Shown here: positions 26,834 to 47,966 of the stretch, in pieces
Position numbering within the stretch: position 1 is the stretch's first letter
Layout: every line of letters begins with the position of its first letter
Source of the DNA: Nitrosopumilus sp.
GTDB taxonomy: Archaea; Thermoproteota; Nitrososphaeria; Nitrososphaerales; Nitrosopumilaceae
Direction of reading: 5' to 3'
Assembly (NCBI GenBank): GCA_965205675.1
Contig: OZ242186.1
Location: 1,440,001-1,504,000 of the forward strand
Length of the DNA: 64,000 bases
Notes under the pieces: model-generated
Database searches by the model: none
Seen by the model: the letters and a program-made list of their open reading frames with translations, nothing else
What the model was told of the DNA's origin: nothing
Program-made: the position numbers and the translations under genes

Positions 26834-29800
26834 TCATTTTGCAATTCTAATGACGCGCTCTTCTATGAGAGTCTCAATGAGTTCGGTGAATTCCATATCA
26901 GTGAGATTGCCATCAGTGTAGTTACCTACATCATTAAGCAGCCACTGTGGATAGGTATCGATATCTTGCAGGCTTTTTGATTTTTCCCAGTCCTCATAGA
27001 CAATATAGTGGTTATCAATTAGATAGTCAATGGAATTAAAGAAGAATATGTCACGTGCAGGACTTCCATTCCACAATTTTAGATCAGACTTTATCCACAA
27101 AGGTATAGGATCAGTATTTTTTTGAACAGTCTTATCTGCTATGGGTCTTGGATCATCTTCTATTGCATTTAGAATATCAAGTGAACTCTGCTGTTCGCTA
27201 GTATACCCTGTACGATGATGGTATTTCTTTTCAACAAAGTCGTCACTTAGCGTTATGGTCTGAGTAAATGTGTCTCGTTTGTCTTTTGCTGTAACTGCAA
27301 AAGAGTCTGCATCAGAATTAATTGTGGCAGAGTATACGAGGTGCTGTTTCTCTGCTTCATTTGCAGAGGACTGTGGTGACTGCTCAGATGTCAGAGACAA
27401 TGCTGCCAGGTGCACGCCTGCATCAGTGCTGACAGAGACAGATGCTGGTCCGCATGTAGAGAGCAGTTCCACATTGACAGTGCTAGTTTCCCTGTCATAT
27501 CCTATACTGAATATTCGAAGCGAGATGCCCATTCCAAATCCCTTAGAGTCACAACTGGATTTGTTGATATCTTTGTGTAAGAATTCAGCGTGGGACTCTT
27601 CAGATACTGCCACGTTGATTCTGCCGCTACCGCCGCTAGAGGATGTGGGGGGTGGGGGAAGAGTGCCAGTACTAGTAATGAGGTTATTCTCTGAGGATAT
27701 AATGTTATTTTGTGCAGTGTCTCGTATGGCACCTGCTGCAATATCCAGATGCAAGTCATCACTGTTACTATTAGCGATGTAAGAGATTATCTCTTCTCGC
27801 TGCTGCTCAGTTACAGTTATTTCAAGTGTATCAGAGTTGGGACTAGCATGTATGGCACCAGCAAGGGATACAGACATGCTGCTACCTGTAGTGCCAGATA
27901 TTGTAAAGCTATCCACGGTGATATTATCAGGGTCTATTGTTTCTGAAAAGGTTACAGTTAGCAGACCTGTTACTTTGTGTATGACACCTGAGACAAAGGT
28001 TGGCTCAATCTGATCATCGACCATTTCAAGTGGGTTGTCTTCTGATGCTGCAATGCCATTTTCTGAAGTATCCTGTACGGCACCTTCTGCAATGTCTAGA
28101 TGCAGGTTATCACTAGTACCGGTGTAACCTATTACTCGCTGTCGTTGTTGCTCATTTAGAGTTATTGTAATGGTATGAGCAGAAATAGGGTCGATGGCAG
28201 ATGCTGTACCTGCAAGGGATACAGGTATGCTGTTACCTACAGTGTCAGATATTGTAAAGTTACCTACTATGATACTATCAGGGGATATTGTCTCTGAGAA
28301 ATTTACAGTCAGTACACCTGTGCCCTCTTGTACTACAGCAGAGACAAAGGTTGGCAGAATTGTATCACCAACACTTGTAATAGGATCATCTTCAGAAGCT
28401 GCAACATCATTTTCTGAAGTGTCCTGTACGGCGCCTTCTGCAATGTCTAGATGCAAGTTTGTGTCATTGTTATTAACAGTACCAGTGTAAGCTATTACTT
28501 GCTGTCGTTGTGTTTCAGTCAGAGTTATTGTAAGAGTATCAGTAGAGGTAGAATCAATGTCGGGTGTTGCACCTGCAAGGGACACTGGTGGTAGTGCGTT
28601 GCCAGTTACAGTATCAGATATTGTAAAGCTATCCACTGTAACATCAGAGTCAATTGCCTCTGAGAAGGTTACAGAGAGTACACCTGTGCCCTCTTGTACT
28701 ACAGCAGAAACAAATGTTGGCAGAATTGTATCAACAACCATTGTAATCTCGTTATCCACAGAAGCTGCAATGTTATTCTGTACAGTGTCTCGCACGGCAC
28801 CTGCTGCAATGTCAAGATGCAAGTTACCACCAGTGCCGGTGTAACCTATTACTTGCTGTCGCTGTGCCTCAGTCAGGGTTATTGTAATGGTGTCAGGGGA
28901 GCCAGGGTCAACGGCGGTCGCTAGACCTGCAAGGGATACGGGTGGTGATGCGTTGCTAGATATGGTATCAGATATTGTAAATCCGTCCACTGTGATATGA
29001 CTAGGGTCAATTGTCTCTGAGAAATTTACAGTCAGTACACCTGTGCCCTCTTGCATCACACCAGAGACAAATGTTGGCAGAATTGTATCAACAACCATTG
29101 TAATCTCGTTATCCACAGAAGCTGCAATGTTATTCTGTACAGTGTCTCGCACGGCACCTGCTGCAATGTCAAGATGCAAGTTACCACCAGTGCCGGTGTA
29201 ACCTATTACTTGCTGTCGCTGTGCCTCAGTCAGGGTTATTGTAATGGTGTCAGGGGAGCCAGGGTCAACGGCGGTCGCTAGACCTGCAAGGGATACGGGT
29301 GGTGATGCGTTGCTAGATATGGTATCAGATATTGTAAATCCGTTCACTGTGATATGACTAGGGTCAATTGTCTCTGAGAAATTTACAGTCAGTACACCTG
29401 TGCCCTCTTGCATCACACCAGAGACAAATGTTGGCAGAATTGTATCAACAACCATTGTAATCTCGTTATCCACAGAAGCTACAATGTTATTCTGTGCAGT
29501 GTCTCGCACGGCACCTGCTGCAATGTCAAGATGCAAGTTACCACCAGTGCCGGTGTAACCTATTACTTGCTGTCGCTGTGCCTCAGTCAGGGTTATTGTA
29601 ATGGTGTCAGGGGAGCCAGGGTCAACGGCGGTCGCTAGACCTGCAAGGGATACGGGTGGTGATGCGTTGCTAGATATGGTATCAGATATTGTAAATCCGT
29701 CCACTGTGATATGACTAGGGTCAATTGTCTCTGAGAAATTTACAGTCAGTACACCTGTGCCCTCTTGCATCACACCAGAGACAAATGTTGGCGGGATTGC

Positions 29801-32800
29801 ATCATTAGTTCTTATAATAAGATTATCCTCAGAAGCTGCAATGTTATTCTGTACAGTGTCTCGCACGGCACCTGCTGCAATGTCAAGATGCAATGAACCG
29901 GTATAAGGTAATATTAGCTGTCGCTGTGCCTCAGTCAGGGTTATTGTAAGGGTATCAGGAGCGCCAAAAATAATGGCGGGCGTTGCACCTGCAAGGGATA
30001 CGGAGAGACGTGCCTCAATGCCGCTCTCCAAATCATCAGTTATTGTAAATCTTTCCACCATGATATTACTAGGGTCAATTGTCTCTGAGAAGGTTACAAA
30101 GAGGACGCCTGCGCCCTCTTGTAGCACACCAAAGACAAATGTTGGCAGAATTGTATCAACAACCATTGTAATCTCGTTATCCACAGAAGCTGCAATGTTA
30201 TTCTGTACAGTGTCTCGCACGGCACCTGCTGCAATGTCAAGATGCAAGTTACCACCAGTGCCGGTGTAACCTATTACTTGCTGTCGCTGTGCCTCAGTCA
30301 GGGTTATTGTAATGGTGTCAGGGGAGCCAGGGTCAACGGCGGTCGCTAGACCTGCAAGGGATACGGGTGGTGATGCGTTGCTAGATATGGTATCAGATAT
30401 TGTAAATCTTTCCACCATGATATTACTAGGGTCAATTGTCTCTGAGAAATTTACAGTCAGTACACCTGTGCCCTCTTGCATCACACCAGAGACAAATGTT
30501 GGCAGAATTGTATCAACAACCATTGTAATCTCGTTATCCACAGAAGCTACAATGTTATTCTGTGCAGTGTCTCGCACGGCACCTGCTGCAATGTCAAGAT
30601 GCAAGTTACCACCAGTGCCGGTGTAACCTATTACTTGCTGTCGCTGTGCCTCAGTCAGGGTTATTGTAATGGTGTCAGGGGAGCCAGGGTCAACGGCGGT
30701 CGCTAGACCTGCAAGGGATACGGGTGGTGATGCGTTGCTAGATATGGTATCAGATATTGTAAATCCGTTCACTGTGATATGACTAGGGTCAATTGTCTCT
30801 GAGAAATTTACAGTCAGTACACCTGTGCCCTCTTGCATCACACCAGAGACAAATGTTGGCAGAATTGTATCAACAACCATTGTAATCTCGTTATCCACAG
30901 AAGCTGCAATGTTATTCTGTACAGTGTCTCGCACGGCACCTGCTGCAATGTCAAGATGCAAGTTACCACCAGTGCCGGTGTAACCTATTACTTGCTGTCG
31001 CTGTGCCTCAGTCAGGGTTATTGTAATGGTGTCAGGGGAGCCAGGGTCAACGGCGGTCGCTAGACCTGCAAGGGATACGGGTGGTGATGCGTTGCTAGAT
31101 ATGGTATCAGATATTGTAAATCTTTCCACCATGATATTACTAGGGTCAATTGTCTCTGAGAAATTTACAGTCAGTACACCTGTGCCCTCTTGCATCACAC
31201 CAGAGACAAATGTTGGCAGAATTGTATCAACAACCATTGTAATCTCGTTATCCACAGAAGCTACAATGTTATTCTGTGCAGTGTCTCGCACGGCACCTGC
31301 TGCAATGTCAAGATGCAAGTTACCACCAGTGCCGGTGTAACCTATTACTTGCTGTCGCTGTGCCTCAGTCAGGGTTATTGTAATGGTGTCAGGGGAGCCA
31401 GGGTCAACGGCGGTCGCTAGACCTGCAAGGGATACGGGTGGTGATGCGTTGCTAGATATGGTATCAGATATTGTAAATCCGTTCACTGTGATATGACTAG
31501 GGTCAATTGTCTCTGAGAAATTTACAGTCAGTACACCTGTGCCCTCTTGCATCACACCAGAGACAAATGTTGGAGCTGTAGTGTCAAGGGTTACAGTAAC
31601 AGGATCAGAGAGTGCAGACTTATTACCTGCGGTATCAGTAGCTATAACAGTCAATTCGTTATTGCCTTGGACTAGCGTAAATGAGTCAAATGACCAAGTA
31701 CCGTCAGATGCAGCTGTTGTGCTTCTACCAGGTACTTCATTAGAGTTTCTTAATAACTGGACTGTGGAGCCAGGCTCAGCAGTACCTGAAATGTCAATTG
31801 ACTCTGTGTTGACAGTTGAAGTAGATGGCGACGTAATGATTGGTATAATATTCACAGCTACGGAGATGGTCTGAGATACAGTACTTTGTCCATCAGATAC
31901 AATAACATCAAAGGTGTGTGTACCGGCTTGTAATTCAGTTGGAGTCCATGAGAATGCGCCTGTGTTACTATTGATGGTAGCACCTTCAGGTTCATCATTC
32001 AGAGAATATACAAGTACATCAGCATCATCAGCGTCACTGGCTGATACAATAAAGGTTAGCGGTATATTGGCAATTGCTGATTGCGGAGTTGTAATGGGAC
32101 TGATTACCGGCACTGCATTGAGATCTCCCACAGTTAGCGTAAAGCTATCAGATGCAGAGTCGTCAGAATCTGACCCACTGACTATAAAATTAAATTCTTT
32201 GAGAAACTCAGAATCACTAGTAATTACATCAAATGGAGGATTAGATATAATCTGATCACCATTAATGGTCAACCAATCAGGAACTGCTTCGTTATCAGTT
32301 GTAGTTAATGTAAATGTTGGATTTGTAAAACCAGTGTGTGAGATATTAATAATGGACTGGATACCTTCAAATGAAAAAGAATCTTCTACAAATACAAATG
32401 GTGATACAATATCCACAGCTACGGAGATGGTCTGAGATACAGTACTTTGTCCATCAGATACAAAAACATCAAAGGTGTGTGTACCGGCTTGTAATTCAGT
32501 TGGAGTCCATGAGAATGCGCCTGTGTTACTATTGATGGTAGCACCTTCAGGTTCATCATTCAGAGAATATACAAGTACATCAGCATCATCAGCGTCACTG
32601 GCTGATACAATAAAGGTTAGCGGTATATTGGCAATTGCTGATTGCGGAGTTGTAATGGGACTGATTACCGGCACTGCATTGAGATCTCCCACAGTTAGCG
32701 TAAAGCTATCAGATGCAGAGTCGTCAGAATCTGACCCACTGACTATAAAATTAAATTCTTTGAGAAACTCAGAATCACTAGTAATTACATCAAATGGAGG

Positions 32801-33325
32801 ATTAGATATAATCTGATCACCATTAATGGTCAACCAATCAGGAACTGCTTCGTTATCAGTTGTAGTTAATGTAAATGTTGGATTTGTAAAACCAGTGTGT
32901 GAGATATTAATAATGGACTGGATACCTTCAAATGAAAAAGAATCTTCTACAAATACAAATGGTGATACAATATCCACAGCTACGGAGATGGTCTGAGATA
33001 CAGTACTTTGTCCATCAGATACAAAAACATCAAAGGTGTGTGTACCGGCTTGTAATTCAGTTGGAGTCCATGAGAATGCGCCTGTGTTACTATTGATGGT
33101 AGCACCTTCAGGTTCATCATTCAGAGAATATACAAGTACATCAGCATCAGCGTCACTGGCTGATACAATAAAGGTTAGCGGTATATTGGCAATTGCTGAT
33201 TGCGGAGTTGTAATGGGACTGATTACCGGCGCAGTATTCACCTGAGCAAGAACGTTGTTGACAGGAACTAACGCTAAAACAAAAATCAGTATTGCAGAGT
33301 ATAATATTAGTCTTGTAGAAATCAT
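26834..33325 (-). CDS. Giant secreted/surface protein with cadherin-like/putative-Ig and bacterial Ig-like repeats, 2163 aa
   Basis: Signal peptide; 3 PEGATI..TG.FSWTP domains; one GTAEPGSTV...TDTAGN Ig domain; 11 units of ~119 aa; Pro/Ser/Gly linker; C-terminal IP.WIK-type domain as in nitrosopumilid surface proteins. Confidence 0.85.
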   Translation of the reverse strand: MISTRLILYSAILIFVLALVPVNNVLAQVNTAPVISPITTPQSAIANIPLTFIVSASDADADVLVYSLNDEPEGATINSNTGAFSWTPTELQAGTHTFDVFVSDGQSTVSQTISVAVDIVSPFVFVEDSFSFEGIQSIINISHTGFTNPTFTLTTTDNEAVPDWLTINGDQIISNPPFDVITSDSEFLKEFNFIVSGSDSDDSASDSFTLTVGDLNAVPVISPITTPQSAIANIPLTFIVSASDADDADVLVYSLNDEPEGATINSNTGAFSWTPTELQAGTHTFDVFVSDGQSTVSQTISVAVDIVSPFVFVEDSFSFEGIQSIINISHTGFTNPTFTLTTTDNEAVPDWLTINGDQIISNPPFDVITSDSEFLKEFNFIVSGSDSDDSASDSFTLTVGDLNAVPVISPITTPQSAIANIPLTFIVSASDADDADVLVYSLNDEPEGATINSNTGAFSWTPTELQAGTHTFDVIVSDGQSTVSQTISVAVNIIPIITSPSTSTVNTESIDISGTAEPGSTVQLLRNSNEVPGRSTTAASDGTWSFDSFTLVQGNNELTVIATDTAGNKSALSDPVTVTLDTTAPTFVSGVMQEGTGVLTVNFSETIDPSHITVNGFTISDTISSNASPPVSLAGLATAVDPGSPDTITITLTEAQRQQVIGYTGTGGNLHLDIAAGAVRDTAQNNIVASVDNEITMVVDTILPTFVSGVMQEGTGVLTVNFSETIDPSNIMVERFTISDTISSNASPPVSLAGLATAVDPGSPDTITITLTEAQRQQVIGYTGTGGNLHLDIAAGAVRDTVQNNIAASVDNEITMVVDTILPTFVSGVMQEGTGVLTVNFSETIDPSHITVNGFTISDTISSNASPPVSLAGLATAVDPGSPDTITITLTEAQRQQVIGYTGTGGNLHLDIAAGAVRDTAQNNIVASVDNEITMVVDTILPTFVSGVMQEGTGVLTVNFSETIDPSNIMVERFTISDTISSNASPPVSLAGLATAVDPGSPDTITITLTEAQRQQVIGYTGTGGNLHLDIAAGAVRDTVQNNIAASVDNEITMVVDTILPTFVFGVLQEGAGVLFVTFSETIDPSNIMVERFTITDDLESGIEARLSVSLAGATPAIIFGAPDTLTITLTEAQRQLILPYTGSLHLDIAAGAVRDTVQNNIAASEDNLIIRTNDAIPPTFVSGVMQEGTGVLTVNFSETIDPSHITVDGFTISDTISSNASPPVSLAGLATAVDPGSPDTITITLTEAQRQQVIGYTGTGGNLHLDIAAGAVRDTAQNNIVASVDNEITMVVDTILPTFVSGVMQEGTGVLTVNFSETIDPSHITVNGFTISDTISSNASPPVSLAGLATAVDPGSPDTITITLTEAQRQQVIGYTGTGGNLHLDIAAGAVRDTVQNNIAASVDNEITMVVDTILPTFVSGVMQEGTGVLTVNFSETIDPSHITVDGFTISDTISSNASPPVSLAGLATAVDPGSPDTITITLTEAQRQQVIGYTGTGGNLHLDIAAGAVRDTVQNNIAASVDNEITMVVDTILPTFVSAVVQEGTGVLSVTFSEAIDSDVTVDSFTISDTVTGNALPPVSLAGATPDIDSTSTDTLTITLTETQRQQVIAYTGTVNNNDTNLHLDIAEGAVQDTSENDVAASEDDPITSVGDTILPTFVSAVVQEGTGVLTVNFSETISPDSIIVGNFTISDTVGNSIPVSLAGTASAIDPISAHTITITLNEQQRQRVIGYTGTSDNLHLDIAEGAVQDTSENGIAASEDNPLEMVDDQIEPTFVSGVIHKVTGLLTVTFSETIDPDNITVDSFTISGTTGSSMSVSLAGAIHASPNSDTLEITVTEQQREEIISYIANSNSDDLHLDIAAGAIRDTAQNNIISSENNLITSTGTLPPPPTSSSGGSGRINVAVSEESHAEFLHKDINKSSCDSKGFGMGISLRIFSIGYDRETSTVNVELLSTCGPASVSVSTDAGVHLAALSLTSEQSPQSSANEAEKQHLVYSATINSDADSFAVTAKDKRDTFTQTITLSDDFVEKKYHHRTGYTSEQQSSLDILNAIEDDPRPIADKTVQKNTDPIPLWIKSDLKLWNGSPARDIFFFNSIDYLIDNHYIVYEDWEKSKSLQDIDTYPQWLLNDVGNYTDGNLTDMEFTELIETLIEERVIRIAK
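27680..31575 (-). repeat. Intragenic ~357-bp tandem repeat, 11 units (7 near-identical)
   Basis: Each unit starts PTFV.....EGTGVL; 357-bp period visible in DNA and in shadow ORFs. Confidence 0.95.
31853..33230 (-). repeat. Intragenic 561-bp tandem repeat, ~2.5 units
   Basis: Near-identical DNA with a 561-bp period; 3-bp indel (DADADV vs DADDADV). Confidence 0.95.
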
Positions 33326-33761: not shown

Positions 33762-35245
33762 GTAACTGTCTAGAGTTTTGAAGTAAAATCTCCAAGATAT
33801 TCTAAAGAATAATCATGAAAGTTTAATCCTCGTAATCTGCATGTCTCCTTTATACTCATCAGTATCTTATGAGAATCAGCACCATGAATGGTTCTATGAC
33901 CGTTTGTAATTTTACGAATTATCACATTTGGTCTGATTGCCCTCTCTGCTGTGTTATTGTGTGAATCAGTTCCAGTAATTAGGAATGTAAAAAGCATTTC
34001 TCTCTCACGTTTCAATCTTTTTACAAACCTGATACAGTTTTTCTCTGTGTATTTTTTTGATATGATGTGATTAATTCTCCTTTCAAGATTCTTTTTTGCA
34101 TGGATTCTTTCTGATTCTGATTTTATTTTTGCCACACCATGAGAGTCATAAATTATTTTCTTGAGATTCTTGGCAAATGGTGCAAATTCTGGTCCGGGAT
34201 TCTTGTGATTAATGGTATCATTAACCTCTCTGAGATAATGGATGTGACATTTCTGGTGAGTGCTTCCAACATGGTTCCATGCAGGGTACGAATCACTTGT
34301 AATGTTGCCATCATATCCCTTGAGAATTCTCTTGGGAACATCCATTGAACGTGATTTGTCAATCTCGTAAATTACAGTCCATTTACTCACAAATGCCCAC
34401 AACCAGTGGTTCTGGCCATCTACCCTCCAACTTGTCTCATCACCATGTATGTTTAGATCTTCTTTTAACTCCACAATCATTGTATCATATCTGCTCCCAA
34501 ATGCTTTTGATACTATTGATACTGCATGATTAATTGCAGATTCTGTAATGTGCAGTGAGAAGAGCATCTGCAAAAGATGAGATATTTTACCATACGATAA
34601 TCCGATAGTTTTTAGTGATGTGATTAGCACCATGAGCCTAATTCCAAACCTTTCATTTGACAGTACAGTGTGAATGTTACCCGAGATTTGTTTTTTGCAG
34701 TTTGTGCAGTATCGTCTAACTATCGTATATTTTGTCACAACTGCTTTTGCAGGAATGATGTCTTCTACTATTCTGGTGTATGAATCAGTTGGTTCTGAGA
34801 GTGATTTGCCACATGTGTTGCACTCTTTTTGGTCAACTGTAATGGCATCATCAATGTGTGCTGTGCATTTCCAAAGACGCACATAATGGATTTTCTTCTT
34901 TTTGGTCAACTGTAATGGCATCATCAATGTGTGCCCGTCTGCTTCTGCTTTTTCTAGGATGTCTTGATGTTTTCTTCTTTTTTGCAGTTTCAGTCTTGTT
35001 TGGTTTTGCTTTGATATTTCTTGCAACAAGTGTAGACACTGTTTGTTTTAGTTCTGCAATTTCTCTGTGTAGTGATTCAATATCTTTGCGTAACTGACGG
35101 TTTTCTTGCTCCAGCGAGTGACATCTGTTACGATAATATTCCAGCTCATCATATACTGACAATTGTATATTGTAATTTGTCACTGATCAGAAAAGATATA
35201 GATAAAAAATATTAAAGAAAGTACTTCAAAACTCTAGACAGTTAC
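33762..35245 (-). mobile_element. IS66 family element, copy 2 (1484 bp), transposase frameshifted by a 73-bp insertion
   Basis: Same 24-bp IRs; 73 bp longer than copies 1 and 3; ORF split into 34851..35183 and 33770..35029. Confidence 0.95.
34824..34934. repeat. Repeat-spacer-repeat unit: 38-bp exact duplication around a 35-bp unique insert
   Basis: TCTTTTTGGTCAACTGTAATGGCATCATCAATGTGTGC at 34824-34861 and 34897-34934; single in the other IS66 copies. Confidence 0.95.
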
Positions 35246-35251
35246 AAAAAA

Positions 35252-35412
35252 TGTTGTATCCTAGAATCGGCTCGTCTCTTATTTCACATCATATTCTTCC
35301 CCTGTCTGCTCATCCATAACACCCTTGTTTCCCTTTTCTGGCATCTTTTTCACATTGCTTTTGCAGGTGTCCTTAGATTGTCCCAGTCAAGTAACATATG
35401 CGGTTTTATATA
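35252..35412 (-). mobile_element. Degenerate IS481 3' remnant
   Basis: Diverged copy of 33438-33600. Confidence 0.7.
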
Positions 35413-35549
35413 ATTACTTGATAATAATAATCAGACAAATAATCGAGATTGATGAGAAGGCCAAGTGGAAAACTATTATTCAAAATACTAGTCTACACAA
35501 GGAAAATTCAATTTGAATAAGATCTGTATTTCATATAACCCCTCGAAGA

Positions 35550-35897
35550 TTACATAGAATCGGATTTCTTTTTACTTTTCTGAATCAAAATTTTCTTTAT
35601 TCTAGAAATTGTAGGATAACTGTAACTCCTCCTACGATAATTTGCAATCATAATTTTCCAATTTTTTAATCTCCATTGAGCTTGTTCGGCAGTAACAGAA
35701 TGAACTTCTTTCTGAATGATACTTTTCCTGCCTACTTTTAGAGTTCCAGCATCTTTTGCAGACCATCTATTTTTTGCAAATTTAAGACCAGAAAGGATCT
35801 CAGACACAGGCATTTCTTTGAAATAGGCTTTCAATCTTTTTAATTCTGCATCAGACGGCTTTTTAGAAATTAGTAATTCGATAGTAGACTTTGCCAC
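35550..35897 (-). CDS. Basic hypothetical protein
   Basis: 115-aa Lys/Arg-rich ORF. Confidence 0.65.
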   Translation of the reverse strand: MAKSTIELLISKKPSDAELKRLKAYFKEMPVSEILSGLKFAKNRWSAKDAGTLKVGRKSIIQKEVHSVTAEQAQWRLKNWKIMIANYRRRSYSYPTISRIKKILIQKSKKKSDSM

Positions 35898-36089
35898 AAT
35901 AAACAGTTCGGGTTATTGCTTAAGAGAATCTTGCTAAAGAATCATTTACTAATTGGTTCTAGTCATGTTTATTTATCAAAAATTGTCATTTTAGGCATGA
36001 GATATGCAATAATCTATGAAAAAATTAATAATTTTGATGTATTGGAGAGTATTGGGATGAGTTGTATGTATGGGAAATTGATATTTGTG

Positions 36090-36403
36090 AAACATTTGAG
36101 CAGGAACTGGTAAAACTAGAGATAAAACACATCATGGCAAGAGTAAACCATCCACAGATAAACGGCAAGCTGGAAAGATTCCACGATGAGATTCAAAGAA
36201 AACAGAAATGGTTTGAGACTGTAGATGAGATGGTCCACTGGTATAACTATATCAAACCACACATGTAACTTGACTGGGATTAATTTTGAGACACCAGCAA
36301 AGACTGCAAGAAAGATGCCAGAGAAAAGAACAAGAGTTGTTGATGAGCAGACAGGAGAAGAGTACGATGCAGAATAAGGGGCGAACTGATTTTGGGAAAT
36401 ATC
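36090..36403 (+). mobile_element. Degenerate IS481 3' remnant
   Basis: ARVNHPQINGKLERFH...YNYIKPHM*; homologous to 33438-33761. Confidence 0.75.
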
Positions 36404-36513
36404 AATTGAAATTCTCAAATATTTCTTTGTAAAGATAATTATTCATTACTTTAGAAATAACAAAAATAATTATTTCCTAGAATGTGTAATTTGATGTACT
36501 TTCCCATCTGCTG

Positions 36514-36691
36514 ATGATTGAAGAGATTTGGAGACAGTGCAAACATGCTAATGTTGAATCAGATTTTTATGAATCTATTCATGAAATGAGGCATACAGTT
36601 ATGGAATATTTTAGAACCCATAAATTTGATTTGAATATGTATCAGTATTTTGCAAGAACAGTGAATTGAAAAGACTTATGATCTGGGGTAT
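36514..36691 (+). mobile_element. 3' remnant of the IS630 element found intact at 42575
   Basis: Near-identical to ~43487-43665, including the right IR. Confidence 0.85.
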
Positions 36692-36740
36692 AAGTATGGT
36701 GAAAATATACTTTTAATAGTTGAATTTAAGATAATTCGTA

Positions 36741-37280
36741 TTGATAGATAAGATTGATGAATTGATAATTTCTGCCCTCTCTCAAAATTCAAAACAAAAA
36801 GTTTTTGAGATTTGGGATTTTTTGAAGGGATTTAATTATGATTTAACAGAAGATGAAATTGAATCAAGAATATCAAAACTTGAAGAAGATAAAATTATTA
36901 AAGGATACACAATAACTGTAGATGCAAAGAAAATTTTACACAAGGTCATACGCGTAGATCTTGTCACGTTTAGGATATCTCAAGCACTTCCAAAAAGAGT
37001 AGATGGATTAAAAAAATATCTCAATGATGCGCCATTTGTTTTATTCTCAGGTAAAACGCGTGGGGGGTATGATTGGATTACAGTAAAATCATTTTTATCA
37101 AACGATATGGCGGATGAAGAAAGTGATATTTATCGAAATTTGTTTGGAGATATTATTCAAACATATGAGGTATATGATTTTGTTCCACAGACAGATGCAT
37201 CAATTTATGCATTAACTTATACAGAAATTGAATATAAAAAATTTCTCAAAGAATGGACACCTCCATTTATTGGATCATAA
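36741..37280 (+). CDS. Lrp/AsnC-family transcriptional regulator
   Basis: DKIDELII..L..NS...RI.KLEE..IIKGYT HTH plus RAM-like domain. Confidence 0.8.
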   Translation: MIDKIDELIISALSQNSKQKVFEIWDFLKGFNYDLTEDEIESRISKLEEDKIIKGYTITVDAKKILHKVIRVDLVTFRISQALPKRVDGLKKYLNDAPFVLFSGKTRGGYDWITVKSFLSNDMADEESDIYRNLFGDIIQTYEVYDFVPQTDASIYALTYTEIEYKKFLKEWTPPFIGS

Positions 37281-37281
37281 A

Positions 37282-38118
37282 TTATAACTTTGTTTTTTTA
37301 AAGTGAATTGTCTCATCTATCATTGAATGGGTTTGTAATCTCAAACTCATCAAAAATTTAATCACCTCTGCTCTTTGTTTTGGATTAATTCCATGTGCAT
37401 CTTCTATCAGGTCATCAATTCTTGAAAGCGTAATTTTTAGAGATAAATGAGTTTTTTTTATCAAATTAAGTGCCTTTGAATTTTTGTTAGTAACTTGATT
37501 GTTATTTTTAATCGTTTTTTTGATGACACGGATTTGTTTTACAGTCATCTTTTTGTTGACTATCTCATCTACTAGATCACTATTTTGTGATCCATTAATT
37601 GAAGTTAATTCCAATGCTTGACTTACACTCAAATCATTTTGAAGGATTTTTTCTTGTATATTATTTGAAAGTTTTAAGAGCTGCATTCGATGAGACACAT
37701 ATTCTTCACTCTTTCCAATTTTTTGAGCTAAATCTCTTACTGCTCCCCATCCGTATTCATTTACATATTTTTGGTAAGCTTCTGCCTCCTCTATCGGATC
37801 CATAGATTTTCTCTGAATGTTTTCAGTTAATTGAATCTCATATGCCTGTTTGTCTGTCAAGTCTCGAATTTTACTTGGAATGAATCTCCAACGTAGGGAT
37901 CTACATGCTACATATCTACGATGTCCTGCAACTACCTCAAACCCATGATCAAGAGGTCTAATTACAATTGGTTGCAATAGCCCATGTGTCTTTATGCTAG
38001 ATTTTAGATTTGCTAGTTCTTGAGAATTTGAAGCTGCCATATACCTGACAGGGGATTTTGATGGTCGAATCATTCGAATTTCAATGGGCTCTACAATTGA
38101 ATTATCAATTATTTCCAT
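37282..38118 (-). CDS. ParB/Spo0J-like protein
   Basis: L..SI..HGLLQPI, VVAGHRR, ENIQR, HTH (LAQKIGKS..YVS). Confidence 0.9.
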   Translation of the reverse strand: MEIIDNSIVEPIEIRMIRPSKSPVRYMAASNSQELANLKSSIKTHGLLQPIVIRPLDHGFEVVAGHRRYVACRSLRWRFIPSKIRDLTDKQAYEIQLTENIQRKSMDPIEEAEAYQKYVNEYGWGAVRDLAQKIGKSEEYVSHRMQLLKLSNNIQEKILQNDLSVSQALELTSINGSQNSDLVDEIVNKKMTVKQIRVIKKTIKNNNQVTNKNSKALNLIKKTHLSLKITLSRIDDLIEDAHGINPKQRAEVIKFLMSLRLQTHSMIDETIHFKKTKL

Positions 38119-38537
38119 TTGGAATCCTCATATTCTAAATTGATAAAATGAAAATAGTATTTAACTTTTAATCAAAAAATTACAATAATTTTTAATTGCT
38201 GTTAAATTAATTTTATAATAACTAAAATTTCATAAAATCATCATATAGCGACGATCAAAAGTTCGTAAACATCTTTACAGTATTTCTAAAGATACAATTT
38301 GCAACATCAATCTTGAATCTTGTCATTCTAAAATATTTTGACACTGTATCATTTATCGTAAACATTGTATAATATTCTGAAACCTGCAACGCATACTTGC
38401 TTATCTTCCAGCATTGTTCTATCATGTTCTTCAAGTACGGCGATCCTTTTGGCAACCATATTAGTTTGACATCTCTATTGTTTGCAAGATATTCTTTTAC
38501 TTTTTTTGATTTGTGAACTGATGCTCAGTATAGCATG

Positions 38538-38632
38538 ATTGCAATCTTGCCATATTTCCAGTGCGACCTTGGAGCATGAAGTAGCTCACGCCAACTTTGA
38601 CAATTGCAATCTTGCCATATTTCCAGTGCGAC
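38538..38632. repeat. Repeat-spacer-repeat unit: 30-bp exact duplication around a 35-bp unique insert
   Basis: ATTGCAATCTTGCCATATTTCCAGTGCGAC at 38538-38567 and 38603-38632. Confidence 0.95.
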
Positions 38633-38939
38633 TCCTTTAGATATTCTACAAATCTTCCAGCATTGAATCTGTCATAAATTTTAAACAGCTGATTGTTATT
38701 TTCCATAATTGTTCCATACTGCCAAACTTTCATGATTGCCTAGGTATGAAAGAAATATTCTCTTGGCAACTGGTGACTGGGTATTTTTTCCTGTCTTTGT
38801 ATCCCTTAGAAAAAATGCCTCATCAGCCATTGCAATGACAAATCCTTCTTTTTTAGGCGTAAAATTCTCTTTCTGATGCGTTGCTGCCAGCTTTTCACAG
38901 CAGATACGCTTGCATGGTGGATGTGATATTTTTGTGCAG

Positions 38940-39081
38940 TAGATGTCTTGCGTAATTATTTCTAGGCGTGAATTTTGCTGCAGGATTTTTCAAATTGGTT
39001 GAGAAATTTGAATTTTCAGGTATGAATTCTGTTAAAATACAAAATTTGAGAAAAAATCTCTATAATTACGCAAGAGGTCTA
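38940..39081. mobile_element. MITE (~140 bp) nested in the IS630 relic
   Basis: IRs TAGA(TG/CC)TCTTGCGTAATTA; same end at 439. Confidence 0.7.
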
Positions 39082-39352
39082 GTTTTTGCAGATATCCTAC
39101 TGGTGCATTATCTTTCTGATGTGAGTAATGTGAAATTTCACTCCAGTGGAATAAGATATTGCTTGCTGTAGCATCACAGGCGTAAACAAAGTTAGCATTG
39201 CCTTTGAGATGATACAGTCCGTTTTCTTCTTTGAAATTGTTCTTGGTCTTCCACTCCTTGGATGGTCGTAGAGGCCATCGATTTCAAAACAATTCACTCA
39301 TTTTCGTACCCAGATTGTGCAGTGTCTTTGCAGTGTGTTCTATTTCCTTACC

Positions 39353-39462
39353 ATCTTTTAGAATCATCAATACTGCCAAGCATTCTTACCTCTAGTCAGA
39401 ATTTCTTGATGTCGTTGGATTAATTATCTTTTAGAATCATCAATACTGCCAAGCATTCTTAC
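39353..39462. repeat. Repeat-spacer-repeat unit: 37-bp exact duplication around a 36-bp unique insert
   Basis: ATCTTTTAGAATCATCAATACTGCCAAGCATTCTTAC at 39353-39389 and 39426-39462. Confidence 0.95.
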
Positions 39463-39650
39463 TGCAACTTTTGAATTTTTTGTAATGCTGCTTTCAAGGG
39501 ATTCTAACTTCCATGTATTTTGTTGGGTTGACTGATCAAAAGGTTTTTTGTTTTGGAATTATTTAGTTCACGAACTTTGTCTTTTCGCTATACAATACTA
39601 TTGATTTGACATGAGGATCATTCTAATACATCATTTCTCAAAGAATCCTG

Positions 39651-40460
39651 ATGAGAAATCCGACTGCAATAATCGGACTGCTGGTTTTGAGCGTAGCATT
39701 GCTTACTATGACAATATACGCAATTGACACTCAGATAATTACTATCGGAGATAAATCATCTGCTGTTCCCATAAAGACCACGTTAATCAATGATTCATTT
39801 AGCACCACACTTGATTCTTGGACATTTCAAGAAAATCCCAACACTGTAGCAAATCAGAGATATTGTAACACGCAAAATACTAATGTATACAGTCTGACTC
39901 ATAATTCAAATCATGATGGTTCTGCACTAATTGATAATTCAAATCATGATGGTTCTGCACTAATTGATAATTCAAATACCTGTTGGTTTGGTACAGTAGG
40001 CGGTGTAAAGTCATTTACAGTTCCAACAGTTCATGATGGCAGCACATTGGAAATGACTCTTGATTATCGAAGTGTTGCCGGTTTAATACCCACAACTGAT
40101 GCGCCTAGTGCCATTTTTACATTGGAAAGGACTCTTGATTATCGAAGTGATGCTGGAGCAATTTCTGCAGGAGTTGGCCATGTAAATAACATGTCTGTCT
40201 TGATTACTGATTCTGATGGTAATATCCTAAAAGAAGAAATATTGTATTCTGGTGCACGCAGCTCGGACTTGAGGGATACTGGCTGGCAAGAAAAGACAAT
40301 TATCGTAAACTCGATAAACGCTACAAAATGCCCATGTGATGTATTTATTTATACTGCGGATTCCTGGCTTGCAGAATGGCAAAAAAAGATTTACTTTGAC
40401 AATGTCAATGTAACACTATCTCATCCAATATCTGATATTGATTACATTTCCTTTCCGTGA
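39651..40460 (+). CDS. Secreted or membrane-anchored protein of unknown function, beta-rich
   Basis: N-terminal hydrophobic helix; ends IYFDNVNV like lectin/jelly-roll domains; carries two in-frame internal duplications. Confidence 0.7.
   Translation: MRNPTAIIGLLVLSVALLTMTIYAIDTQIITIGDKSSAVPIKTTLINDSFSTTLDSWTFQENPNTVANQRYCNTQNTNVYSLTHNSNHDGSALIDNSNHDGSALIDNSNTCWFGTVGGVKSFTVPTVHDGSTLEMTLDYRSVAGLIPTTDAPSAIFTLERTLDYRSDAGAISAGVGHVNNMSVLITDSDGNILKEEILYSGARSSDLRDTGWQEKTIIVNSINATKCPCDVFIYTADSWLAEWQKKIYFDNVNVTLSHPISDIDYISFP
39901..39977 (+). repeat. 33-bp in-frame tandem duplication
   Basis: ATAATTCAAATCATGATGGTTCTGCACTAATTG x2 plus a partial copy (NSNHDGSALID x2). Confidence 0.95.
40044..40156. 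repeat. Older repeat-spacer-repeat unit: 38-bp duplication (3 mismatches) around a 37-bp insert, in frame
   Basis: ACATTGGAAATGACTCTTGATTATCGAAGTGTTGCCGG vs ACATTGGAAAGGACTCTTGATTATCGAAGTGATGCTGG; period 75 bp. Confidence 0.85.
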
Positions 40461-42401: not shown

Positions 42402-42474
42402 TTTTTTTGTATGTATAGCGAAAAGATAAAGTTCGTGAACTAAATTTCAAAAAACTAGAAATCAATTGAACTTA

Positions 42475-42572
42475 TACCTCGGAGCATAATTCTTTGCAAT
42501 TTTTCAAAACAAATAGCAATACTTTTTGATCAGTAGTTAGAAATAATTTCATGGACATCACAAATGACGAGT
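42475..42572 (+). mobile_element. Left-end stub of IS630, interrupted at a TA by an identical element
   Basis: Exact 100-bp-period duplicate of the start of the 42575 element. Confidence 0.85.
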
Positions 42573-42574
42573 TA

Positions 42575-43664
42575 TACCTCGGAGCATAATTCTTTGCAAT
42601 TTTTCAAAACAAATAGCAATACTTTTTGATCAGTAGTTAGAAATAATTTCATGGACATCACAAATGACGAGTTACTCCAGGCCTACAAAAAAGAAAAGTA
42701 CGGTAAGAAAAAGGAAAGACTGCATGCAATGTGTATAATTAAGATCAACAAATCTACAATTGCTGAAACTGCAAGCCAAATGTTTTGTACATACAATTCT
42801 GTAAGGAACTGCCTTGATTCATTTGAAAAATATGGATTGGGGGGTCTGGAGGACCTCCCTCGTTCTGGCCGTCCGCCATTAATTTCACACAAAAAATTAC
42901 AAAAAATAGAGCGTACATTTAAGAGAATTTCAGATGGAATGACTCCAAAAAAACTGATACAATTCATATTTTACAGAACACGCATTACATATCATATCAC
43001 TCATGTGCGTCGTTTGATGTACAAATGGAATCTAAAACCAAAGGTTCCACAAAAGGTACATGTGCGAGCAGCATCCAAGGATGTGTGCCGCAAGTGGAAA
43101 AACCGCATCATTTCACGCATAGAAAAGGCAAAAAAGAAAGGTTTTACAGTATTTATCCAAGACGAGTCTGTATTTGTAGACGATGTACGTCTTGGCAAAA
43201 AATACTGGACAGATGCACACCAACGAATGATTGTACGTTGGAGAGGATCACATCAAAGATTTTTGGTTTATGGAAATGATGATAATCAAAGTTTTTTTAG
43301 ATCGTATGAAAAATTTAATTCAATTGCATTTATAGATTATTTGGAGGCAGCTCGTAGAAAATTTGGAAAAATATTTGTTATCGTCGATAGAGCACCACAA
43401 CACAAAGCTAATGATGTAAAAAAATATCTGCACAAAAACAAAGATGTCAAACTGGCATATCTTCTGAGAGGCTCCCCGCATTTGAGTATGATTGAAGAGA
43501 TTTGGAGACAGTGCAAACATGTTAATGTTGAATCAGATTTTTATGAATCTATTCATGAGATGAGGCATACAGTTATGGAATATTTTAGAACCCATAAATT
43601 TGATTTGAATATGTATCAGTATTTTGCAAGAACAGTGAATTGAAAAGACTTATGATCTGGGGTA
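42575..43664 (+). mobile_element. IS630-family element
   Basis: TA-flanked IRs TACCTCGGAGCATAATTCTT / TACCCCAGATCATAAGTCTT. Confidence 0.9.
42651..43643 (+). CDS. IS630 transposase
   Basis: PRSGRP HTH region; QDES, VDRAPQH, SPHL..IEEIW DDE triad. Confidence 0.9.
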   Translation: MDITNDELLQAYKKEKYGKKKERLHAMCIIKINKSTIAETASQMFCTYNSVRNCLDSFEKYGLGGLEDLPRSGRPPLISHKKLQKIERTFKRISDGMTPKKLIQFIFYRTRITYHITHVRRLMYKWNLKPKVPQKVHVRAASKDVCRKWKNRIISRIEKAKKKGFTVFIQDESVFVDDVRLGKKYWTDAHQRMIVRWRGSHQRFLVYGNDDNQSFFRSYEKFNSIAFIDYLEAARRKFGKIFVIVDRAPQHKANDVKKYLHKNKDVKLAYLLRGSPHLSMIEEIWRQCKHVNVESDFYESIHEMRHTVMEYFRTHKFDLNMYQYFARTVN

Positions 43665-44294: not shown

Positions 44295-46622
44295 ATGTTT
44301 TTAATCTCATTTTACATGGGCGTTATTTTGTCTGAAAATATTGGATTTGTCCTATTAATTGGAGTTGGATTAATCATGGCATTATCAGTCACATTGATGG
44401 TAAAGGCTGAAACAAAATGGCTTCATACTAGAAAAACATCTGAGTGGTTCTACACTGCAGGTAGAACTATTAAAACAGGATTAATTGCATCATCAATTGT
44501 TTCTGCATGGACCTGGGCTGCAACTCTTTTACAATCAACTACTGTCACTTTTGAATTTGGATTGGGAGGTTCTTTTTGGTATGCAGCTGGTGCAAGTATT
44601 CAGGTGATCTTGTTTTCAATTCTTGCAATAGAATTAAAAAGAAAGGCACCCATGACGCATACTTTTCCTGAAATGATTTATGTTAGATTTGGAAAACACT
44701 CTCACAAAGTTTTTTTGTTTTTTGCATTAATGACTAATACTATAGTTACTGCAATGCTAGTATTAGGAGGTACAGCAGTAATTAACTCCTTAACTGGAAT
44801 CGACGTTACTCTAGCTGCATTTTTGATTCCTGTTGGAATAATTGTTTATACCATCTTTGGTGGTTTAAAGGCAACATTTTTTGCAGAATATCTTAATGCT
44901 GCTTTAATTTTTGTTGTCGTACTAATCTTTGTAACTGTCATTTATTTTAACACTCCAGAAATTGGCGGAATCTCTGGAATGTATGAAAAACTAACCCAAG
45001 CATCTATTCTAAAACCTGTAGAAGGAAATGCATTTGGAACGTATTTGACATTAGCATCAATGGGAGCTTTGATATTTGGTATTATTAACATTGTAGGAAA
45101 CTTTGGAACAGTTTTTGTAGACCAATCTTACTGGCAACGAACAATTGCATCAAGACCAAAGGGTGCCACTGGGGGATTTATTTTGGGAGGGCTGGCATGG
45201 TTTGCAATCCCTTTTACTCTTGCCACTACACTTGGGTTGGCAGCAATTGCAACTGGAGTTACGTTGACTGAAAATGATATTGGAATGGGACTTGTTGCAC
45301 CCACTACTGCATCAAATCTTATGGGTGATTTTGGAGCTATTCTTCTTTTAACAATTATCTTTACTGCTGTAACTGCTGCAGGTTCTTCTCAATTAGTTAG
45401 TGTTTCATCTCTTGTTACCTATGATGTTTTTCGTACATACCTAAAACCCTCCTCATCTGGTCGTGAATTAATTAGAATTTCTCGATTTACTATTCTGGGG
45501 TTTGGAATGGGAATGGGGTTACTGTCATCTTTGTTATTCCATTCAGGTTTTAGTTTACAATATGTCTATCTCATGATGGGAATTTTAATTGGCTCTGCTG
45601 TAGCTCCAATATCACTTTCTATTTTATGGAAAAAAACCAACAAGTATGCCGCAACCTCAGCAGCTATTGCAGGATTGATTTGTGGTGTTTTATCATGGAT
45701 TTGGTCTGCTGATTTGATGTATGGTGAAATCACTCTGTCTTCAACTGGAAATCTATTACCTCTTTTGATAGGAAATATCATATCAATTTCTGTAGGACTA
45801 TGTATTACAGTTATTGGAAGTATGATAAAACCTGAAAACTTTGATTTTGTTATCATGAAACAAAAAATTCTCCTAGTTGATGAGAAGATTAGCTCTATGT
45901 TAATGCATGATACTGATAAAGAATTCCTTGAGCGTTCTTTGAAATTTTGTAAAAGAGCTGGTCTTTCAATATCTATTTTTCTTGTAATAGTTTGGCCTGC
46001 ATCTTTTTATCTTACTGAATTTGTATTTGAAGAACAATCATTTCATGCATGGGTCTGGCTTGCAATAATTTGGGCTTTTGCAGCTGCTGGCATCATAATA
46101 TTTTTACCACTAATTGAGGCAAGAAAAAGCATCAGTGAAATTTTTCACAAAGCGAGTATGGATTCAGATGTCATGAAACGATCTGATAATTCATTATATG
46201 AAAAAAATTTGCTTGTAATGAACATTCTAGTTCCAATAGATGGTTCTGCAAGATCTCTAAAAGCAATCTATCATGCAAATTATCTCTTCAGAGGATCAGT
46301 GCAAGTAAGAATTTACTTGGTGCATGTTATAGAACGTACTAGTAAAAATGAAGAAAACATTGATGAAGAATTATCAAATCAGATCCAAGAAGAAGGAAGA
46401 CTGATTCTTAGAAGTGTTATGGTGCCCAAACAGATCAATAACTACAAACGTATTGTCAAATTAGGAGATCCTTCTGAGAAAATTACAGAACTTGCAGAAA
46501 AACTCAAAGTAGATGTGATAATTATGAACAAAAAAGGTATTGGAAAATCTAATTCAAATTTGGGACGTGTAACTCAAAACGTACTCAAGCTTTGCTCAAA
46601 ACCTATAATTTTACTGGACTAG
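44295..46622 (+). CDS. DUR3-type urea:sodium solute symporter fused to a C-terminal universal stress protein domain
   Basis: SAWTWAATLLQS, NFGTVFVDQSYWQR; C-terminal NILVPIDGS...GDP..KI..LA....VDVIIM...LGRVT..VL; start may be 44316. Confidence 0.88.
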   Translation: MFLISFYMGVILSENIGFVLLIGVGLIMALSVTLMVKAETKWLHTRKTSEWFYTAGRTIKTGLIASSIVSAWTWAATLLQSTTVTFEFGLGGSFWYAAGASIQVILFSILAIELKRKAPMTHTFPEMIYVRFGKHSHKVFLFFALMTNTIVTAMLVLGGTAVINSLTGIDVTLAAFLIPVGIIVYTIFGGLKATFFAEYLNAALIFVVVLIFVTVIYFNTPEIGGISGMYEKLTQASILKPVEGNAFGTYLTLASMGALIFGIINIVGNFGTVFVDQSYWQRTIASRPKGATGGFILGGLAWFAIPFTLATTLGLAAIATGVTLTENDIGMGLVAPTTASNLMGDFGAILLLTIIFTAVTAAGSSQLVSVSSLVTYDVFRTYLKPSSSGRELIRISRFTILGFGMGMGLLSSLLFHSGFSLQYVYLMMGILIGSAVAPISLSILWKKTNKYAATSAAIAGLICGVLSWIWSADLMYGEITLSSTGNLLPLLIGNIISISVGLCITVIGSMIKPENFDFVIMKQKILLVDEKISSMLMHDTDKEFLERSLKFCKRAGLSISIFLVIVWPASFYLTEFVFEEQSFHAWVWLAIIWAFAAAGIIIFLPLIEARKSISEIFHKASMDSDVMKRSDNSLYEKNLLVMNILVPIDGSARSLKAIYHANYLFRGSVQVRIYLVHVIERTSKNEENIDEELSNQIQEEGRLILRSVMVPKQINNYKRIVKLGDPSEKITELAEKLKVDVIIMNKKGIGKSNSNLGRVTQNVLKLCSKPIILLD

Positions 46623-47033
46623 GAATTTTAAATGCAAGTTCTAGATTTCTCATTGGGCAGTTGTCTATTTTGACTTCAATTGACATATTTTGGATGTCCT
46701 TGATAGTTTGCATGACACATTGATATTTAGATAATTCTACTATCAATCTATCTGCTATAATTTCATCTATGGTATTTTTTCGAATCTCATTGGTTAAATG
46801 AAAACAACAGATTAACATTAATTGATCCCAATCACATTTGAGATTTTGATGAATTGTCTCTGTAATAATTCCATATATTATGTGGAGATTTTTTTCATTA
46901 TTTTTATAAAATTGAATTTTCTTTGTCTTTGTGTTATGATAGCTTTGAATATGAAATTTAATCTGAATCATTTCATAATATCAAATAAAATAGAACATAG
47001 CATTTTATCTTGTAAAATGATTTAAAAGGAAAT

Positions 47034-47966
47034 TCAGTTTTTTCTTATTTTGGAAAATTCTATTCCGAGAATTTTTTTCCTGCTGATATCAAGTATTTTG
47101 TAAATCACGTTAATGATATTCTCTGTTTTATTTCCCAAAATTCTAATTATTATTCCTGATTCATCAGGAAGAATAGACATTCCAACAGACATTTTATCTA
47201 AAATCTTGAGATATTCATAAAGATTATTTTCTAATTCATTTATGGTTTTTTTCCTAGTTAAAATATAAACTGTTCCAACTATTTCATATTCGCCTAATAT
47301 TCCAAAATCATTTAATTTCTTGTCTTTTGGCTTAATCTTTGTATTCTCCAAAAATCTGATTTTTTTGTCTTGATCTGAGCAATGTGTTCTAAGATAGCAA
47401 ATATCGTATTCAAAAGATTCACCTGATGCAACTCTGCCTGGAGTTAAGATTTCTGAATAAATCAATGTAGAGTTGTTATGAACATTGAGATTTGCTTTTT
47501 GATAGTATCTAGAGTTTTTGTAGGGGATGATCTGGTCAGGAATATATTCAAAATAACAATTCTCTTCAATTGTAATATTGAGAATGTGTGATGCCCAATT
47601 AGAATTCATTCCATAAATTCTGGTGGCTCCCTGCGTTGTCATATGCGCAACTGCTGTATTTTTTAATACAACATTTGTTTTGTATCTGTCACCTTGCAAA
47701 ATTCCCCCTGATGGTGAAATTACATAAAGATATGCCATGTTGGGATTTGAGATTTCAGGATAAAGAGCTCGCTGAATTAATAATGGAACTTGAGAAAATT
47801 GTTTTGTAATTACTGTTTTTTTCTCATTATTTGTACCAAGTTCCAAATCCAGAATTCCTATTTTGCCTGATTTTCCAACGCCTAATTGATCTACTTTAGT
47901 ATCATGTGCTTGAATTTCTTTTGGAATATCGCCTGGAATAAAATTTTTCAATTTATTGTTTATCAT
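47034..47966 (-). CDS. ureD: Urease accessory protein UreD
   Basis: SGGILQGD, TTQGATRIY, EYIPDQIIPY, PGRVA.GE.F. Confidence 0.92.
   Translation of the reverse strand: MINNKLKNFIPGDIPKEIQAHDTKVDQLGVGKSGKIGILDLELGTNNEKKTVITKQFSQVPLLIQRALYPEISNPNMAYLYVISPSGGILQGDRYKTNVVLKNTAVAHMTTQGATRIYGMNSNWASHILNITIEENCYFEYIPDQIIPYKNSRYYQKANLNVHNNSTLIYSEILTPGRVASGESFEYDICYLRTHCSDQDKKIRFLENTKIKPKDKKLNDFGILGEYEIVGTVYILTRKKTINELENNLYEYLKILDKMSVGMSILPDESGIIIRILGNKTENIINVIYKILDISRKKILGIEFSKIRKN

Follow-up and report, generated by a model that had tools for sequence, protein, structure and literature searches.

In the window analysed here (64,000 nt, C1:1440001–1504000 of a genome that forms a single contig, C1, of 2,011,361 bp with 33.7 per cent G+C), a short segment of an IS630 transposase relic is present twice, and the two copies enclose a spacer-sized piece of other sequence. 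What kind of event duplicated this segment and placed new sequence between the copies, and which enzyme carried it out? Off-target integration of CRISPR spacers is known experimentally, and most accounts present it as a rare, harmful event. We find it highly probable that the unit is a scar of such ectopic spacer integration. The complete reading, in which Cas1–Cas2 integrated a spacer ectopically and the integrase was most likely of type I-G and has since been lost, is one that we consider fairly probable. The support that this analysis provides consists of empty paralogous sites, of duplications that fall into two distinct lengths, and of the agreement of these lengths and the corresponding periods with two CRISPR types found in the genus.

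Structure of the unit and its empty sites

The two 37-nt copies are 100 per cent identical and start 73 nt apart (table 1); in contig coordinates, the unit starts at C1:1479353. An earlier note on this DNA had described a 37-bp duplication with a 36-bp insert near the 5′ end of an IS630 relic, with the same net gain of 73 bp as at position 34824, and this description is confirmed. The insert is the sequence that the note had quoted, and the unit at 34824 likewise has a period of 73, made up of a 38-nt exact repeat and a 35-nt insert. The duplicated segment aligns to about C1:880471–880507 in an intact IS630 paralogue (C1:879558–880541), close to the 5′ end of its transposase gene, which codes for a 327-aa DDE_3 transposase. 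In the relic, the transposase frame is broken and the longest stop-free stretch is 97 aa.

If the unit is an insertion, the insert should be missing from uninterrupted IS630 homologues, as had been said beforehand. It is missing from all those aligned: in the multiple alignment, seven of the seven IS630 paralogues used contain a single copy of the 37 nt and are without the other 73 nt. The unit is therefore an insertion with target duplication. A BLAST search of the genome with the unit and its 300-nt flanks gave six paralogues in which the left and right matches overlap by 34–38 nt, i.e. empty sites.

Exact repeats lying 73 nt apart in a multi-copy element are slip-prone for assemblers and polymerases, and the unit could in principle be a tandem duplication produced by replication slippage or an assembly artefact. 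The 36-nt insert has no other copy in the genome, however, and so cannot have arisen by tandem duplication of what adjoins it; in the paralogues the 37-nt segment continues directly into the right flank. A 103-nt contig from the public runs X1 and X2, which come from a single sample that may be the source of the assembly itself, matches positions 39360–39462 with 0 differences and thus spans the insert and the second copy; no joined, empty-site form is present among the contigs of these runs that align to the unit. The same anatomy occurs 14 times in this genome and is also found in three others. Slippage or artefact is, in our opinion, extremely improbable.

Table 1. Positions of the repeat–insert–repeat units and of the IS630 relic. 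Positions are those of the window unless preceded by C1.
Feature	Position	Strand	Remarks
IS630-type (DDE_3) element relic	38244..39596	-	hosts the units 39353–39462 and 38538–38632; limits approximate, from paralogue alignment
First 37-nt target-site duplication copy	39353..39389	.	IS630 transposase coding sequence, single in paralogues
36-nt spacer-like insert	39390..39425	.	unique in genome
Second 37-nt target-site duplication copy	39426..39462	.	from paralogue alignment
30-nt-class unit in the same IS630 relic	38538..38632	.	exact repeats 38538–38567 / 38603–38632, 35-nt insert
36–39-nt-class unit in IS66 transposase gene	34824..34934	.	exact 38-nt repeats 34824–34861 / 34897–34934
Older 36–39-nt-class unit	40044..40156	.	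38-nt repeats 40044–40081 / 40119–40156, 35/38 identical
30-nt class, four units	C1:98273, 199961, 439378, 1478538 (= window 38538)		periods 64–67
36–39-nt class, units 1–5 of 10	C1:541166, 732792, 1247936, 1474824 (= window 34824), 1479353 (= unit 39353–39462)		periods 70–75
36–39-nt class, units 6–10 of 10	C1:1480044 (= window 40044), 1505435, 1599699, 1704607, 1774762		periods 70–75

Solitary units of two length classes

The 2.01-Mb genome was scanned for exact direct repeats and, in a tolerant scan, for repeats with at least 25 of 28 matches at a spacing of 55–90. The scans identified one canonical CRISPR array, one orphan repeat pair and 14 solitary repeat–insert–repeat units. The tolerant scan gave 117 clusters in the real genome against 0 in a second-order Markov simulation; the anatomy of the units is not due to chance. 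By the length of the duplication they form two classes, one of 30 nt with four members and one of 36–39 nt with ten (table 1). In the larger class the copies are perfectly identical in seven units and mismatched in three.

Empty sites could be demonstrated for nine of the 14 units. For six of them these are found in paralogues (2, 9, 1, 24, 6 and 15 subject pairs), and for three further units in the orthologues of congeners: C1:1505435, C1:1704607 (5/5 genomes) and C1:98273 (5/5). The remaining five units are C1:199961, 732792, 1247936, 1480044 and 1599699; the regions of C1:1599699 and of window 40044 are not conserved in the five congeners tried, hence no orthologous site is available for them. 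The unit in the IS66 transposase gene has an empty counterpart in 24 paralogous IS66 copies, many with 100 per cent identical flanks. These flanks, together with the identical copies in seven of the ten units of the larger class, indicate that these events are recent, which tells against an enzyme that, like the one proposed below, is absent from the genome. The older unit at 40044 has a 37-nt insert and a period of 75, and is in frame within the ORF 39651–40460.

The units are not evenly spread. Four of the 14 lie within 5.4 kb (window 34824–40156, C1:1474824–1480156; simulation P = 4e-5), and five lie within 31 kb (P = 3e-4), the fifth being C1:1505435, 25 kb further on. Both length classes have scarred the single IS630 relic, where the 30-nt-class unit has an empty site in nine paralogues. 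Three units are situated in insertion-sequence copies counted as repeats (at least 80 per cent identity), and repeats so defined constitute 16.8 per cent of the genome. ParB-like, Fic and IS genes are found in the neighbourhood of the cluster. An exact 100-nt tandem duplication at window 42472–42671 reaches into the beginning of an intact IS630 transposase ORF (42651–43643).

The unit at 39353–39462 was also considered as a canonical CRISPR array and rejected as such: it has two copies only, and its 'repeat' is IS630 transposase sequence, unlike the type I-B or type I-G repeats described below.

Spacer-like properties of the inserts

As delimited by the exact repeats, the 14 inserts measure 32–40 nt, and the lengths in the two classes overlap. 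The longest word common to any two of them is 9 nt, they have no common ends, and their mean G+C content is 41 per cent against 33.7 per cent for the genome. The inserts thus resemble spacers both in length and in having an unrelated sequence at each event. A chromosomal source was found for two of the 14, and the other 12 have none in the genome. The insert at C1:1774800 is an exact 34-nt match to a chromosomal gene present in five tandem copies, from which it follows that the true duplication at this unit is 36 nt; the insert at window 40082 matches C1:1021736–1021770 at 33 of 35 positions. The flanks of these two protospacers have no common motif, and no consistent PAM could be read from them. 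The 36-nt insert of the unit at 39353 has no match in 150 congeners at up to three mismatches. Exact matches in viral contigs were found neither for its central 26-mer nor for a 25-mer of the insert at 34862.

An origin outside CRISPR would require either a miniature mobile element whose insertion duplicates a long target, or the capture of short DNA fragments by some undescribed integrase or repair pathway. The 14 inserts, all different, with no common word longer than 9 nt and no common ends, are not copies of one element, and one of them reproduces 34 nt of a chromosomal gene exactly. Such an origin would agree with the absence of an encoded integrase with a 36-bp ruler, with the lack of a target motif (see below) and with the failure of two protospacers to define a PAM; it would leave aside that the lengths of inserts and duplications fall in narrow, CRISPR-like ranges and that the duplications of the 30-nt class have the length of the resident repeat. 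To our knowledge, no family of transposons duplicates about 36 bp of its target, and we consider a non-CRISPR origin very unlikely.

The resident type I-B system and the 30-nt class

The genome codes for one Cas1 and one Cas2, both located in a type I-B locus. This locus comprises the array (12 repeats of 30 nt, with spacers of 34–37 nt), Cas4, Cas1b (437 bits, cut-off 304), Cas2, an IS630 copy, Cas3 (an 887-aa open frame), Cas5b, Cas7, a large unnamed protein and Cas6. The IS630 copy (C1:701265–702263, with a 332-aa DDE_3 transposase) lies between cas2 and cas3, and the flanking cas genes keep open frames. Far from the cas locus, C1:9812–9909 contains two diverged 30-nt repeats of I-B type, an orphan pair that encloses a 38-nt spacer.

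The duplications of the 30-nt class have the length of the resident I-B repeat. Their four targets are identical to this repeat at 18, 15, 18 and 19 of 30 positions, all at shift 0, where the 99th percentile of the null is 17; the last value is that of the unit at 38538 in the IS630 relic, also in register. The 30-nt class fits off-target integration by the resident I-B integrase at repeat-like sites. The targets of the 36–39-nt class in this genome show no similarity to the I-B repeat, and the two classes differ in that a cognate Cas1–Cas2 is present in the same genome for the former and absent for the latter.

The 36–39-nt class and the type I-G systems of congeners

Two congeners, G009 and G014, carry a second CRISPR system, of type I-G, besides type I-B. 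It includes a Cas4g/Cas1g fusion protein of 555 aa (713 bits on the NCBIfam model, cut-off 560) accompanied by Cas2; Cas3g and Cas7g are also found. The I-G arrays, to which the fusion protein is adjacent, consist of a 36-nt repeat in 131 or 140 copies; their periods are 71–77, and the 223 spacers are mostly 35–41 nt long. The duplications of 36–39 nt with periods of 70–75 observed here are comparable to the repeats associated with this adaptation module (NCBIfam NF049935), the match being to congeners, and exact duplications somewhat longer than the 36-nt repeat are expected from chance extension at the ends.

The same scan was applied to 396,200 nt tiled from each of four related genomes (G009, G014, G017 and G036, about a fifth of each), units being called there by the direct-repeat scan alone. 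The samples contain seven units of the 36–39-nt class in G009, plus one with a period of 66, and eight in G014, both with type I-G and type I-B. There are three clear units and a partial one in G017, which has the type I-B Cas1 only and no I-G genes, and none in the 396-kb sample of G036, a type I-B-only genome with an array of more than 130 repeats. G017 retains one solitary 36-nt I-G repeat (G017:C1:1535367–1535402) with three changes, two of them compensatory in the stem, and this relic indicates that G017 once had a type I-G system; G036 has neither I-G genes nor a relic 36-nt repeat. Taken together, the unit counts and the relic repeat show the 36–39-nt class to track the presence, current or past, of type I-G, as a correlation drawn from four related and partly sampled genomes. 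The gene for the fusion protein occurs in 12 of 150 congeners, with 7 stop codons in one copy, and is both patchy and decaying in the genus. In four of the seven G009 units (G009:C1:5187, 34474, 41414 and 186737), the copies match over 33 nt, after which, at one end, a single mismatch is followed by two matches; this mismatch is at a fixed place, third from the boundary.

No part of a type I-G system was detected in the genome studied here. It has no second Cas1 or Cas2, no remnant of Cas4g/Cas1g or of the congeners' Cas2 in tblastn searches with the fusion protein and Cas2, and no Cas3g or Cas7g in family searches; the 36-nt repeat of the congeners is likewise absent, even with nine mismatches allowed. 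Nor do the targets resemble that repeat: those of the 36–39-nt class here are identical to it at 12–16 of 36 positions (null mean 14.1), and those in the congeners at a mean of 14.0 (null 14.0). The link of this class to type I-G is one of length, period and co-occurrence only, and the apparent promiscuity of the I-G module is read from the unit counts in the congeners. One of the 223 I-G array spacers of the congeners matches this genome (34/36, at C1:840459–840494), which is too few to define a PAM.

The main rival assigns both classes to the resident I-B Cas4–Cas1b–Cas2, with a spacing of 30 bp at repeat-like targets and a default of about 36–37 bp elsewhere. This complex contains the only Cas1–Cas2 of the genome, it looks intact, and most events are recent. 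Two rulers would also account for the overlapping insert lengths, for targets that are repeat-like and in register in the 30-nt class and not in the other, and for the units of G017, whose only Cas1 is of type I-B. That genome, however, keeps the relic 36-nt repeat and so formerly had another system, whereas G036, with type I-B only and more than 130 repeats, has no such unit in 396 kb; moreover, the length and period of the class equal those of the type I-G arrays of the genus. Biochemical data point in the same direction. In the part of the Pyrococcus furiosus study that deals with off-target events (Grainy et al. 2019, PMC6698737), an archaeal Cas1–Cas2 with a 30-nt repeat is reported to hold a spacing of 30–31 bp in vitro in full-site integration at non-CRISPR sites; the spacing is credited there to the architecture of the complex, and the off-target sites resembled the repeat. 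By analogy, an integrase adapted to a 30-nt repeat is not expected to give 36-bp duplications.

We therefore regard production of both classes by the I-B complex as unlikely. The enzyme behind the 36–39-nt class is most likely not one that the genome still encodes, and there is, in our estimate, somewhat more than an even chance that it was a type I-G integrase. It is more probable that the I-G integrases of the genus scatter spacers over the chromosome, at about 20 per Mb and preferentially near their own locus, than that the I-B complex has two rulers. Were the latter true all the same, which we think improbable, the 36–39-nt class would report an intrinsic, sequence-independent geometry of that complex.

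Target choice and proposed mechanism

The earlier note had remarked that, read on the minus strand, the targets at 39353 and 34824 both start with G, contain ATTGATGAT and end in AAAAGA(T), and had proposed a single enzyme with a ruler mechanism and a weak sequence preference. The description of these two targets is accurate, but ATTGATGAT and AAAAGA are confined to them and absent from the other eight of the ten targets of the class. The ruler has been borne out, the ten units forming one class (36–39 nt, periods 70–75); the sequence preference has not, none being measurable. The hint at CRISPR in the same note was right.

Among the 28 targets from this genome and the congeners, no word or register test was significant. 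A leading 5′ G is present in all ten local targets only after trimming to 36 nt; untrimmed, it is present in five of ten here and in six of the 18 congener units, as judged by eye. The words ATTG and TTGA are marginal (inside five of ten targets, P about 0.013–0.018, uncorrected), and T[CG]AA is found near a 5′ end of seven of the 28 targets, where the null is 0.24. A target motif common to the 36–39-nt class is rejected. Integration in this class looks sequence-independent, with a ruler of about 36–37 bp.

The following course of events would produce the unit. A Cas1–Cas2 integrase loaded with a prespacer of about 36 bp would attack the two strands of a non-CRISPR target about 36–37 bp apart, and gap repair would then duplicate the stretch between the two points of attack. 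The expected product is a copy of the target, the spacer and a second copy of the target, which is the anatomy of repeat–spacer–repeat in an array. For the 36–39-nt class, the integrase would be the type I-G adaptation module, that is the Cas4g/Cas1g fusion together with Cas2. Once formed, the unit at 39353–39462 probably has no activity, since its 'repeat' belongs to the coding sequence of IS630 and would not serve Cas6 as a substrate.

A possible site of a presumed lost module

In G014, the I-G locus lies between the orthologues of C1:673.5–680.3 kb and C1:710.2–731.8 kb, which in the present genome is the site of the I-B locus. Beside this site, C1:710155–716731 is 91–98 per cent identical to G014:C1:114106–120665, compared with about 78 per cent elsewhere between the two genomes; such a block suggests recent exchange at a shared defence site. 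The I-G module that is presumed lost may have been located at the site that now holds the type I-B locus. The next syntenic piece in G014 corresponds to C1:1463968–1465349, about 10 kb before the unit cluster of the window, and four of the eight units of G014 lie within 26 kb of its I-G locus (binomial P about 1e-3, estimated by hand). If cassettes were exchanged at this site, and if stray integration favoured the surroundings of the locus, the clustering of units both here and in G014 would be accounted for. The urease accessory and sodium:solute symporter genes are split between window 44295–47966 (SSF-Usp, UreD) and C1:687488–692520 (SSF, UreE, UreF), which hints at a rearrangement that separated the window region from the flank of the CRISPR locus.

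Comparison with known systems

Off-target spacer integration in vivo has reportedly been described by Nivala, Shipman and Church in 2018 for the type I-E system of Escherichia coli, giving rise to 'neo-CRISPR' units. The units described here share with off-target Cas1–Cas2 integration a spacer-length insert at a non-CRISPR site, a duplication of repeat length, a spacing set by the integrase and the appearance of repeat–spacer–repeat. They differ from the published cases in being natural and fixed, 14 in one genome and of two length classes. Furthermore, the published sites are repeat-like, as are those of the 30-nt class, whereas the larger class is unlike any repeat and has no cognate integrase in the genome.

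As two-repeat, one-spacer units far from cas genes, the scars are also similar to the isolated or orphan mini-arrays of Shmakov et al., most of which are said to have repeats identical to those of cas-adjacent arrays (2020). The 'repeats' of the present units, by contrast, are host coding or IS sequence, and their empty sites can be demonstrated directly. Among the origins suggested for isolated arrays is off-target spacer acquisition (Shmakov et al. 2020, as cited in a passage of PMC13142298).

The units have Cas1-family chemistry, on the reading preferred here, and target-site duplication in common with casposon integration. Casposons are kilobase-sized elements with duplications of about 14–15 bp, unlike the inserts of about 35 nt and the duplications of 30 or 36–39 nt found here, and the single Cas1 of the genome is not casposase-like.

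The mechanism itself is known. What is new is the density of natural, verifiable events, the occurrence of two duplication lengths in one genome and the deduction of a lost module from a length. In open-access text, we found no description of such scars for these archaea or for type I-G.

Consequences of the insertions

Several units affect genes of the host. The unit C1:541166 (C1:541136–541274) splits a tRNA gene, which ARAGORN still calls as tRNA-Phe, with 5 nt of the insert as its 5′ end; there are five tRNA-Phe(GAA) calls among the 42 tRNAs of the genome. At C1:1704607–1704717, the glutamyl-tRNA reductase gene is interrupted and its frame ends after 362 aa, within the second copy; the orthologues of five out of five congeners are uninterrupted. 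The final 12 codons of a UbiA-family gene are the site of the unit C1:1505435, and C1:98273 is situated between the TFS and PCNA genes.

Off-target integration is frequent and fixed here, and directly datable against empty paralogous sites, with 14 events in one genome and seven to eight per 396 kb in two congeners. If type I-G integrases do scatter spacers as proposed, they would constitute an endogenous mutagen, and their scars would remain as a datable footprint of CRISPR systems lost at a later time. The length of the duplication serves as the fingerprint of an integrase; here it points to a CRISPR adaptation module no longer present, and scars of this kind could therefore reveal, from a genome sequence, immune systems that have been lost. 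In addition, the approximately 28 natural and apparently motif-free targets of a 36-bp ruler constitute a data set for how Cas1–Cas2 measures the length of a repeat.

Two other repetitive features were observed in the window. Positions 695–814 contain about four tandem copies of a 24-nt unit, and the minus strand of 26834–33325 carries an ORF of 2163 aa with many internal repeats, opposite which there is a ladder of ORFs of 76–113 aa.
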